Shown piece after piece: positions 1 through 51,980 of a stretch of DNA of 64,000 bases (position 1 is the first letter of the stretch; each line of letters starts with the position of its first letter). Location: the NCBI GenBank assembly GCA_037310415.1, contig CP147780.1, positions 1,344,001-1,408,000 on the forward strand. The letters run 5' to 3'. The position numbers and the translations under genes are program-made. Under the pieces are notes generated by a model, which ran no database searches, was not told the DNA's origin, and saw only the letters and a list, made by a program, of their open reading frames with translations. Source of the DNA: Candidatus Atabeyarchaeum deiterrae (GTDB lineage: Archaea > Asgardarchaeota > Atabeyarchaeia > Atabeyarchaeales > Atabeyarchaeaceae).

Positions 1-828
1 GTTGACCTCCGTCTCAACCACGTTAGACAGCTCTATCTTGGCTTTTTCGCAGCCTTCCTTTAAACGATACATAGCCGTCTTGTCGTTTCTCAAGTCAATT
101 CCCGTATCCCTCCTGAAAAGATTGGCTATGTAGTCAATTATCAATTTATCCATGTCAGTTCCCCCAAGATGCGTGTCACCATTAGTCGCCTTCACTTCGA
201 ACACGTTGTTCCCGAACTCCATGATTGTCACATCATATGTTCCGCCGCCAAGCTCAAACACGAGGATCTTCAACTCCTTTCCAGCCTTGTCAACACCAAA
301 AGCTAGTGCTGATGCAGTAGGTTCATTGATCAGCCTGATTGTCTTGAGCCCAGCTATTTCCGCTGCATCTTTGGTTGCCTGTCGCTGGTTGTCATTGGAA
401 TGCGCGGGGACAGTTATGACTGCCTTTTCAAACTTCTCACCAGTCTGAGTTTCAGCGTCTCTCTTCATCTTCTGTAGAATAAATGCTGAGATCTGCTGAG
501 GAGTGTACTCCTTCCCAAATACTCTGATCTTCTCGTTAGTTCCCATCTTTCGTTTGACTTCAAATATCGTTCCTTCAGGGTTAGTTATCGCCTGTCGTCT
601 TGCTGGCTCGCCCACCAGCAACTGACCATCTTTCGTGAATGCAACAACTGAAGGAAATGCTTTCCCAGTAAGAGACACTCCCTCAGCGCTTTGAATAACG
701 ACGGGTCTACCACCCATCACCACGGCCACAGCCGAATTACTCGTTCCAAGATCTATTCCAAGAACCTTCTCCTTTTTTCCCGTCTCCTTTTTCTGCCATT
801 CAGCAGACTCATTTGTAGAGGAAGACAT
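1..828 (-). CDS. dnaK: Molecular chaperone DnaK (Hsp70), 5' part; runs off the left edge
   Basis: Not in the ORF track. Manual minus-strand translation from ATG at 828 gives [57 protein letters not shown] upstream; downstream of grpE. Confidence 0.96.
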
Positions 829-950
829 TGAAACCACCTCTCTTCTATTTCATAAAATACTGAACGTGATCGTAACAGCAAACCTGCTAGAATCTCACTA
901 TCTCAGTTCTGCAAATCGGTTATGTATACATACCCTGTTAATTTCAGGTG

Positions 951-1673
951 CTATTCTCCTTTATTAGTCTCCTTGCTCGTGTCGCCATCATCTACCTGCT
1001 CTTCTTCATTCGAACCCTGATTATCAGTGGCAGGTTTATTCTTCTCAGGCAAGCATGACACAACTACCATGCTCGGTCTAAGCACCCTATCATCAAACTT
1101 GTAGCCCGCTCTGACTTCTTCGATCACCGTGTCAACCGGACATTTATCCGTCTTAGTGACGGTCACTGCTTCATGCAACTCCGGCGTAAATTTCCTACCA
1201 ACGGCCTCGATCTTCACTATTCCCTCGCTCTTTAGGATCTTTAGGAGTTCCTTCAGAATCATCTCGATTCCGCTGATCAACTTGCTCGATTCGCCAATAG
1301 CTTTGCTTGCATTAATCGTTCTTTCCAAGTCATCCACAATACCAAGCAACTTCCCAGCAAGTCTCTCGCTTCCCCTTTTGACAAGTTCATCCATGTCTCT
1401 GGCTGTTCTCTTCTGGTAGTTCTCCAACTCAGCCCTAAGGTATTTGAGGGAGGTAAGATACTGCTCTGACTTCTTCTTCTCCTCATCAAGAGATTTTCTC
1501 AGAGCTTCGATTTGCTTCTCCTTTGGATCCTCAGTCGCTGTTTTTTGAATTTCCTTACTCTCTTCGCGGGACGCACGGCTCTTCATTTCTAGAGACTCCT
1601 CTATGGTTTTTTCCGCTTGACTCTTCTCGTCTTTGGGAGAAACACTTTTCTGCTTCTCGTGAGTTGTCATCAT
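951..1673 (-). CDS. grpE: Nucleotide exchange factor GrpE
   Basis: RAELENYQKR, FTPELHEAV and GYKFDDRVLRPSMVVV motifs; adjacent to dnaK. Start placed at MMTTHE (the ORF track extends to 1769). Confidence 0.94.
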   Translation of the reverse strand: MMTTHEKQKSVSPKDEKSQAEKTIEESLEMKSRASREESKEIQKTATEDPKEKQIEALRKSLDEEKKKSEQYLTSLKYLRAELENYQKRTARDMDELVKRGSERLAGKLLGIVDDLERTINASKAIGESSKLISGIEMILKELLKILKSEGIVKIEAVGRKFTPELHEAVTVTKTDKCPVDTVIEEVRAGYKFDDRVLRPSMVVVSCLPEKNKPATDNQGSNEEEQVDDGDTSKETNKGE

Positions 1674-50799: not shown

Positions 50800-51402
50800 C
50801 TAAAGGATTCCTATGTAAGTCGTCTTGTACACTAAATAACCCATGCCATTCATGGTTACTAAGGATCCCAAGAACACTCCGGCATACCACACTACTATGG
50901 ATGACAAGAGGTCACTTCCTAACGGAATCAAGACAGCCATATATGATCCAACAATGAAAGTTACGACGACGTTCTCAACCAGTATCGCGATTTGAACCCA
51001 TAAGAGCCCTCTTTTCCCTCTGTTGACAAACATCATGCAGACTTTGTAGCCAAGAAACGCGGCCAGAAAGTTAGCGACAGGCCCCCCAATGACATCAAAC
51101 GCGACGGTCGCGCTGGTTGCAAAGCCATAGTAGTTTCCAACGATGCACCCAATGGAAACTCCAAGCACACCAGCATAGCCGAATACAAACGCAAGAGGCA
51201 TAAGGCAATCGGCGATGCGGATCTGTGCGGGACCAAAACCAAAAACCCAGAAGACTATGACCATGGTCGCATACAAAGCTGCCACAATAGATGAAATGGC
51301 AACTCTCACTGCGGGCTTCTCGTATGGCTTTCCAGAAAGGCCAGAGGCACCCGTTTTCTTTGTTTTGAGCAGAATGCTCGAATATCCTCTTCTAAAGTTC
51401 AA
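50800..51402 (-). CDS. queT: QueT-family 7-deazaguanine (queuosine/archaeosine precursor) transporter
   Basis: IVAALYA...FGPAQIRIADCL..L...GVSIGCIVGN...DVIGG pattern typical of QueT; about 5 TM; GGAGGTGA SD. Confidence 0.8.
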   Translation of the reverse strand: MNFRRGYSSILLKTKKTGASGLSGKPYEKPAVRVAISSIVAALYATMVIVFWVFGFGPAQIRIADCLMPLAFVFGYAGVLGVSIGCIVGNYYGFATSATVAFDVIGGPVANFLAAFLGYKVCMMFVNRGKRGLLWVQIAILVENVVVTFIVGSYMAVLIPLGSDLLSSIVVWYAGVFLGSLVTMNGMGYLVYKTTYIGIL

Positions 51403-51482
51403 AACCTTTTCTCACCTCCACTTCCCGGGGTTTGTTTTGACGCGGAACGGTTGGGAGGACCCACTCACCCGCGCACATTCGC
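51403..51482 (-). promoter_or_regulatory. Structured 5' leader of queT, candidate riboswitch
   Basis: mRNA-sense GCGCGG/CCGCGU stem enclosing UGGG/CCCA, then CAAAACAAACC, then SD GGAGGUGA. TATA-like TTTAATA at 51507-51513. Confidence 0.45.
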
Positions 51483-51593
51483 TTTCTAGTGTTGACTCAG
51501 GCTTAGTATTAAATCCTTGTGTCGCGATCTTGGGTTCATGTCCTGTTGTTCCATCTTCTTGGAGGCTTTCCTCTAATAACGCACCCATGGCCG

Positions 51594-51980
51594 TCAGAAG
51601 AGTTCGATCCAGATCCCATTCGGGTCTTCAACATAGGCCCAGCGGCCACTGTTGGACTTCATTTCCAGCAAAATGCAATGTCCTGCAGCACCAGCTTCTT
51701 CCAAAGCCTTGTCCAAGTCCTCGACCTGAAAGGCAAGATGATCCAATCCTTCACCTACACTATACTCTTTGTTGTAGGGGCTGTTTTTCCCATAATAGTT
51801 CAGTTCAAGTATGAGGCCACCCTTCTCGCTTTCCAGTGCGACGGTTTCTCCTTTGGTTTGATCAATTTTGCCGCGATTCACCATCTTCATGCCGAGAAGT
51901 TTCGTATAAAAGTCGATGGATTTCTCGAGATTCGTCACTCTTATTCCTACATACGTGAATTTAGCTTTCATAACTCTCAC
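51594..51980 (-). CDS. VOC/glyoxalase-family protein
   Basis: YVGIRV..LEKSIDFY, LELNY, DHLAF, EDPNGIWIEL. Confidence 0.9.
   Translation of the reverse strand: MRVMKAKFTYVGIRVTNLEKSIDFYTKLLGMKMVNRGKIDQTKGETVALESEKGGLILELNYYGKNSPYNKEYSVGEGLDHLAFQVEDLDKALEEAGAAGHCILLEMKSNSGRWAYVEDPNGIWIELF

Follow-up and report, generated by a model that had tools for sequence, protein, structure and literature searches.

Three classes of preQ1 riboswitch are the closest described systems to the RNA leader reported here. All three are bacterial, and all of them regulate queT or que genes (PMC11625349). The consensus features used in this study were taken from the 2024 review of the family (PMC11625349). The aptamers of class I (RF00522) bind preQ1, preQ0 (7-cyano-7-deazaguanine) and guanine with graded affinity, carry a conserved AC (type 2) or UC (type 1) before the 3′ strand of stem P1, the C of which pairs with the ligand, and lay their tail along P1 so that the next nucleotides are brought to the top of the helix (PMC11625349). 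Class II (RF01054, the COG4708/queT motif of Streptococcaceae and Lactobacillales) occurs only in Bacillota and forms a pseudoknot of the HLout type that includes a P4 hairpin, and the floor of its pocket is a U-A-U triple (PMC11625349). Class III (RF02680) is an RNA of approximately 100 nt with five helices, in which more than 40 Å separate the aptamer from the Shine–Dalgarno sequence (SD). The class III pocket has U and A residues in common with class II (PMC11602147).

Archaea are absent from the 2024 review (PMC11625349), and McCown et al. (2017) listed very few riboswitch classes in archaea, mainly those for TPP and fluoride. The substrate of the archaeal tRNA-guanine transglycosylase (TGT) is preQ0 (PMC5372724). 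A full-text literature search found no archaeal riboswitch described for preQ0 or preQ1, and a report in a subscription journal is possible. In this study, the leader of queT in Candidatus Atabeyarchaeum deiterrae was compared with these classes and with related archaeal leaders. The leader is probably a member of a previously undescribed class of archaeal riboswitches, acting as a preQ0-sensing OFF switch on the translation of queT.

Materials and methods

The analysed DNA, hereafter the window, was a stretch of 64,000 nucleotides from Ca. Atabeyarchaeum deiterrae (GCA_037310415.1, contig CP147780.1, positions 1,344,001 to 1,408,000 of the forward strand); positions are counted from its first letter. 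The genome is 97% complete and consists of a single contig. Its class is represented by three species genomes, two of them single contigs of approximately 2.8 Mb. The window DNA was found again in wetland and freshwater-sediment metagenomes.

Loci of queT were gathered by a protein search of related genomes, and the same upstream sequence was present at 11 of the 13 loci. A covariance model was built from 16 copies and used to search 151 genomes sampled from the phylum. A first, looser sequence pattern was run on genome contigs and yielded mostly chance matches in GC-rich bacteria, together with 6 true copies. A stricter pattern matched 120 metagenome contigs, of which approximately 115 carried true copies. 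After duplicates and five chance matches were dropped, 131 distinct copies were left. Pairing in stems P1 and P2 was scored in 100 copies aligned to the model. The pseudoknot was scored in 50 copies chosen by spacing alone, with the complementarity of loop and SD ignored.

Results

Organisation of the queT leader

The leader spans approximately 51484–51403 of the minus strand. The sequence-only reading of this DNA had named a TATA-like box, a GC-rich stem, a hairpin carrying CCUCC, an A-rich tail and a GGAGG element, and each was recovered on the minus strand where it had been placed. The features are as follows, in 5′ to 3′ order of the transcript.

51507 to 51513, minus strand: TATA-like box TTTAATA of the queT promoter, read from the sequence and from the TATA position in the family
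51469 to 51474, minus strand: 5′ strand of P1, GCGCGG, of which the inner GCGG is constant across the motif family, with covarying outer pairs
51467 to 51468, minus strand: invariant G-U directly 3′ of the P1 5′ strand (end of GCGGGU), candidate ligand-pocket nucleotides
51452 to 51463, minus strand: P2 hairpin UGGG-UCCU-CCCA, whose loop and 3′ strand bear the anti-SD
51458 to 51454, minus strand: anti-SD CCUCC, within the P2 loop and 3′ strand
51446 to 51451, minus strand: ACCGUU, the junction joining P2 to the 3′ strand of P1; in its G-Y-U, the G and the final U never vary
51440 to 51445, minus strand: P1 3′ strand CCGCGU, pairing with GCGCGG at 51474–51469
51431 to 51439, minus strand: A-rich linker CAAAACAAA, predicted to lie along P1
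51425 to 51430, minus strand: invariant tail C-CCCGG (family consensus YCCCGG), candidate ligand pocket or alternative pairing
51415 to 51419, minus strand: SD GGAGG, 3′ strand of the pseudoknot, with CCUCC at 51458–51454 as partner
51400 to 51405, minus strand: GUUUUG over the start codon, complement of CAAAAC at 51439–51434; specific to the window
50800 to 51402, minus strand: queT, a 200-aa ORF with a TTG start codon (51402–51400), Pfam QueT PF06177

The linker is directly followed by CCCCGGG (51430–51424, minus strand). The upstream glyoxalase-family gene ends at 51594, and queT therefore has its own promoter region. When folded as a single sequence by a program that cannot represent a pseudoknot, the leader was unremarkable in stability relative to shuffles (z +0.43). 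The nested minimum free energy (MFE) fold of the window leader pairs the SD with the CCCC tail, and the free-SD state is a putative one there.

Distribution of the motif

The motif has the order GCGGGU-[hairpin]-GYUCCGC-[A-rich]-AAAYCCCGG-[spacer]-SD and is approximately 65 nt long. In the 151 genomes, the covariance model matched strongly at 27 loci, with E values from 1e-8 to 1e-20, and these were confined to four families, namely, f1 (2/2), f2 (4/4), f12 (17/19) and f20 (3/3). With one exception, which is truncated by the end of its contig, all strong matches lie directly 5′ of a queT homolog. Of the 55 genomes of the sample that have queT, 27 thus carry the motif before it, and approximately half of the queT genes lack it. 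The genome of Ca. Atabeyarchaeum deiterrae holds one strong copy; a weak second match in the same genome (G000:C1:1632878-1632913, L164; 36 nt, 20.7 bits, E 0.0013) is probably noise.

Copies were assigned to Promethearchaeota (Asgard) and to Bathyarchaeia, and five further motif-bearing species genomes are labelled Bathyarchaeia or Bathyarchaeota. By these assignments, the motif occurs in two or more archaeal phyla. An archaeal RNase P RNA is encoded on the contigs of two metagenome copies that are among the most divergent.

A genome of the sister genus (G002) has two queT paralogs, on contigs G002:C62 (L013) and G002:C49 (L014), each with a copy of the motif. The search match to the ortholog of the window queT in this genome contains an internal TAA stop, and its motif is cut by the contig end.

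The queT genes of families f16 and f19 (L008, L009, L290, L291, L292, L301 and L302) are without the RNA motif. They carry two or three TACGTA-centred palindromes (e.g. ATACGTATAAATACGTAT) 15–50 nt before the start codon, which look like a protein operator in place of an RNA switch. At L009, a divergent small ORF just upstream has a ribbon-helix-helix-like N-terminus and a CxxC...CxxC zinc ribbon.

Covariation of stems P1 and P2

P1 consists of four invariant pairs (GCGG:CCGC) and one to three outer covarying pairs in the 131 copies. The fifth pair is GC in 77 copies, AU in 28, UA in 7, GU in 6, CG in 4 and UG in 4, with 5 mismatches. For P1 and P2 together in the 100 aligned copies, 93.0% of cells were paired against 81.3% in shuffles, the covariation score was 0.273 against 0.081 and none of the 500 shuffles scored as high; these covariation counts, like those for the pseudoknot below, are drawn from related sequences in alignments partly fitted or selected by spacing. 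Slid controls reached at most 63% pairing. P2 was 91–98% paired across alignments. In the 50-copy subset selected by spacing, it is typically GUGG:CCAC and is 98% paired yet invariant, and in the wider set of copies it covaries (GGAC/GUCC, CAGA/UCUG and GGAGG/CCUCC). Conservation and covariation among related queT leaders had been proposed as a test of the sequence-only reading, and both were found.

The anti-SD:SD pseudoknot

The helix formed by the P2 loop and 3′ strand with the SD region was 92.7% paired in the 50 copies. Both partners vary in six of its 11 pairs, none of the 500 shuffles reached its score, and slid controls were at most 60% paired. The alternation is clear at single positions: columns 25-69 are CG in 25 copies and UA in 21, columns 26-68 are UA in 25 and CG in 21, and columns 23-71 are CG in 19, AU in 15 and GU in 4. 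The strands are CCUCC/GGAGG in the window and CCUCC(C)AC with GU-A-(G)GGAGG in most copies. Beyond the 50-copy subset, the helix is rebuilt as UCACCUC/GAGGUGA, CAUCUCC/GGAGAUG, ACAUCUC/GAGAUGU, UUCCGA/UCGGAA, CCUUCC/GGAAGG and CCUCAAA/UUUCGAGG, and throughout family f12 it is CUCGCA/UGCGAG or UUCGCA/UGCGAA. The combination of CCUCC-C with G-GGAGG occurred 38 times and that of CCUCC-A with A-GGAGG 39 times, a pattern that none of 1000 permutations reached. The complementarity of CCUCC and GGAGG, noticed earlier in the single leader, is thus a true pseudoknot that is kept through compensatory changes.

Duplex energies of loops with their own SD regions differed modestly from those with foreign SD regions (−12.5 vs −10.5 overall), with 13 of the 34 non-canonical copies ranking in the top tenth. 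This comparison is weak because most copies share the same SD and related copies share variants; position-specific pair counts were used in its place.

The CCAC strand can pair either with GUGG in P2 or with GU-A-GG just 5′ of the SD in the pseudoknot. Since these two partners are nearly identical, P2 and the pseudoknot are mutually exclusive. The comparison shows two predicted folds, one with P2 closed and the SD free and the other with the pseudoknot over the SD. Such pairings, which would expose or mask the SD in turn, constitute a predicted expression platform. In the window, the approximate energies are −7.5 kcal/mol for P2 and −8.7 kcal/mol for the pseudoknot duplex, a balance close enough for a ligand to tip.

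Invariant core and A-rich linker

Outside the covarying helices, approximately 20 positions are constant, namely, GCGGGU, G-Y-U-CCGC, A.AAA and YCCCGG. The pattern that recovered most metagenome copies fixes these blocks, and invariance independent of the pattern is given by the 27 covariance-model matches, in which the sole exception is one CCCAGG/CCGU variant. The G-U after P1 is invariant in the 16-copy alignment and in all 27 matches. The middle position of GYU is U in 117 copies and C in 14. After P1, the unpaired linker is most commonly 7–8 nt long and is 61% A in the 131 copies, so that the A-rich tail described earlier directly after the stem is a conserved element.

No covarying partner of the YCCCGG tail was found in the 131-copy family. 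Four candidate partners were tried, namely, CCG in the junction, GGG in the 5′ strand of P2, GGG in GCGGGU and the SD itself, and none was both universal and covarying. Where the tail varies between C and U, no compensating change accompanies it. GCGGGU contains the only G-run present in all copies, a GGG of which the first two Gs are already paired in P1. Likewise, no covarying pairing was found that explains the invariant GGGU/GYUCC nucleotides. The tail and the top of P1 may together build a pocket for the ligand; one possible form is a three-way junction with GGG:CCC and CC:GG in place of the upper end of P1. Alternatively, the core nucleotides could have two partners in two states, which would likewise freeze them. 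By analogy with class I, the geometry of a P1 of 5–7 bp followed by an A-rich linker of 7–8 nt supports a pocket at the top of P1.

Promoter, transcript start and start codon

TATA-like hexamers cluster 37–31 nt 5′ of the G of GCGGGU in 127 copies. The TATA box of the window starts at −40 or −41 relative to GCGGGU (TTAATA at −40). The usual archaeal TATA box is centred approximately 26 nt before the transcript start; the transcript would therefore begin at P1 or a few nucleotides before it. In the window, the predicted start is approximately 51480–51488. A leader of approximately 80 nt had been deduced from the TATA-like box, which agrees with the fixed TATA distance and a start at the base of P1.

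An alternative pairing of CAAAAC with GUUUUG over the start codon had also been suggested. It exists in the window, where it contributes −7.0 kcal/mol and is part of the nested MFE fold, but it is not a family feature. The pairing in the window is the strongest of this kind among the 131 copies and is not kept even in the sister genus, and a role in the family was ruled out since family-wide pairing was no better than with unrelated partners. By these comparisons, it is a peculiarity of the window genome.

Seven metagenome copies (L183, L196, L215, L228, L246, L262 and L281) have no ATG, GTG or TTG at the normal spacing after the SD. CTG or ACG stands at the expected start site, e.g. GGAGGUGAAAAAACUGGAU and GGAGGUGAAAAGAACGGAU, and these may be non-canonical start codons.

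Downstream genes and preQ0 physiology

The product of the window queT is a 200-aa S component of the ECF type (PF06177, 71.4 bits against a gathering cut-off of 33.7, E 1.2e-19). The alignment with the sister-genus ortholog (L013) includes the first residues of QueT (LNF), and the ATG of that ortholog lies two codons upstream; the N-terminal extension and start region of QueT are therefore real. Downstream of the motif, 121 of 135 ORFs match a QueT profile, and the rest are mostly contig-end fragments or chance matches. On 15 contigs, queT is followed by queC, which overlaps the queT stop by 13 nt (PF06508, E 4e-62). On one contig without queT (L176, 737-2280, plus strand), the motif is followed by a QueE-like radical-SAM gene and then by queC (PF06508, E 1.5e-35). 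The five best NCBIfam matches of this QueE-like protein are all QueE, the best being full length at E 2e-31 and below the trusted cut-off. All identified downstream genes are thus predicted to serve the uptake or synthesis of preQ0. No QueF-type preQ1 gene was found next to any motif copy, and no conserved neighbouring regulator gene accompanies the motif.

PreQ0 is the precursor of the tRNA base archaeosine. The window genome encodes an archaeal-type TGT (PF01702, E 2.9e-85) and, elsewhere, two EcfT proteins that could power QueT. QueD had no match in this genome, QueE had none with one query, and QueC had only a 60-residue PP-loop match that scored better as NAD synthase. With TGT present and queC, queD and queE not found, this archaeon should depend on imported preQ0; it is apparently auxotrophic for preQ0, with QueT as its means of supply. 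A real QueC was not found (best E above 1e-8) in 26 of the 27 motif-bearing genomes, a plain count over genomes that are in many cases closely related and incomplete.

Comparison with the preQ1 riboswitch classes

The sequence-only reading had noted that the leader fits none of the preQ1 classes I, II and III exactly. A search with the Rfam covariance models bears this out. The riboswitch families of Rfam 15 gave no match at E up to 10 to the 91-nt leader or to a 901-nt region, and no preQ1-I, -II, -III or other riboswitch match at the gathering score was obtained in 20 diverse copies.

Class I is similar in strand order, namely, P1, loop, 5′ strand of the pseudoknot, junction, 3′ strand of P1, A-rich tail and a 3′ strand in or beside the SD. 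It also shares an H-type pseudoknot, a P1 of 5–7 bp, an A-rich linker of 7–8 nt, control of translation through masking of the SD of queT or que genes (predicted here) and, as far as can be deduced, the ligand family. However, the archaeal leader is approximately twice as large and has the extra hairpin P2, which competes with the pseudoknot. G-U-U or G-C-U, rather than AC or UC, precedes CCGC in 131/131 copies. The invariant YCCCGG block is a further addition, and class I is bacterial.

In class II, queT is likewise the associated gene, the SD makes up a whole strand of the pseudoknot helix, and regulation is exclusively translational. The archaeal leader has only the helices P1, P2 and the pseudoknot, with other conserved nucleotides and another helix order. 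In class III, which is also found upstream of queT, a hairpin-loop anti-SD docks onto the SD in the 3′ tail (helix P5; PMC11625349). The archaeal motif is shorter than this class at approximately 65 nt, and its core is G/C-rich and adjoins the SD helix. Classes II and III both differ from it in having U/A-rich pockets and another order of helices (PMC11625349, PMC11602147). The leader would work like a preQ1 riboswitch and is a member of none of the three classes.

Discussion

The queT leader is almost certainly a functional, conserved cis-regulatory RNA. It displays the general traits of a riboswitch as far as these can be read from alignments: covarying helices, an invariant unpaired core and an association with genes of one metabolite pathway. 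The proposal of a translational 7-deazaguanine-sensing riboswitch, which had been made from the single leader, is strengthened by conservation, covariation, gene context and the lack of a match to classes I–III. We consider it likely that the leader is a riboswitch for a 7-deazaguanine, with preQ0 as the foremost candidate. On balance, we also favour the view that it represents an archaea-specific class outside Rfam that is common to Asgard archaea and Bathyarchaeia, a fourth structural solution for 7-deazaguanines, tuned to preQ0 rather than preQ1 through an invariant G/C-rich junction (GCGGGU, GYUCCGC and YCCCGG) as a pocket that resembles none of the preQ1 pockets described.

In the proposed mechanism, preQ0 would bind a pocket of invariant unpaired nucleotides at the top of P1, made up of GCGGGU, GYUCCGC, the A-run and YCCCGG. 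Bound preQ0 would stabilise the pseudoknot and hide the SD, and the translation of queT would be off when preQ0 is ample. The logic would be that of preQ1 riboswitches on bacterial queT genes, in which ample end product means less transporter; both the ligand and the direction of switching are inferred. In the window genome, the switch would tune the uptake of a base that is not made there.

The same architecture could serve another ligand, such as 7-carboxy-7-deazaguanine (CDG), preQ1, archaeosine base or guanine, and we regard this as unlikely. The 15 operons that pair queT with queC alone would fit the uptake of CDG and its subsequent conversion to preQ0, and the graded affinity of preQ1-I for preQ1, preQ0 and guanine (PMC11625349) illustrates that sequence alone does not fix the ligand. 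However, imported CDG would be useless to the window genome and to the 26 of 27 motif-bearing genomes without QueC. The use of preQ0 by archaeal TGT (PMC5372724) and the lack of a QueF-type gene next to any copy argue in the same direction, and preQ0 is the end product of the regulated genes queE and queC.

A translational operator read by a protein or an RNA (e.g. a tRNA), or a ligand-independent element such as a thermometer or a folding or stability element, is improbable. Control of queT by protein does exist in the phylum, where the f16 and f19 genes are apparently under a DNA operator (TACGTA palindromes), and structures that mask the SD can serve as thermometers. Against this, approximately 20 unpaired nucleotides have stayed invariant in two phyla and the helices vary freely, which is the usual signature of a small-molecule pocket, and thermometers are normally without such invariant cores. 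Moreover, no conserved regulator gene lies near the motif, and its association is confined to one metabolite pathway. A chance GC-rich stretch without function, which the folding energy of the single sequence (no better than shuffles) might suggest, has a negligible probability and is refuted by the 131 distinct copies, their fixed place before queT, their covariation and their fixed promoter distance.

If the preQ0 riboswitch reading is true, archaea evolved metabolite-sensing RNAs of their own, and a new RNA fold is added for a well-studied ligand family. The switch would also make preQ0 salvage and the supply of archaeosine directly testable in uncultured Asgard archaea and Bathyarchaeia. 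The motif would further be an annotation marker for archaeal genes of 7-deazaguanine transport and synthesis, e.g. the membrane protein at L213. At this locus (246-980, plus strand), the motif precedes a gene for a multi-pass membrane protein of 245 aa, which had no match to Pfam, NCBIfam or the QueT profile and is a candidate for a new family of 7-deazaguanine transporters.
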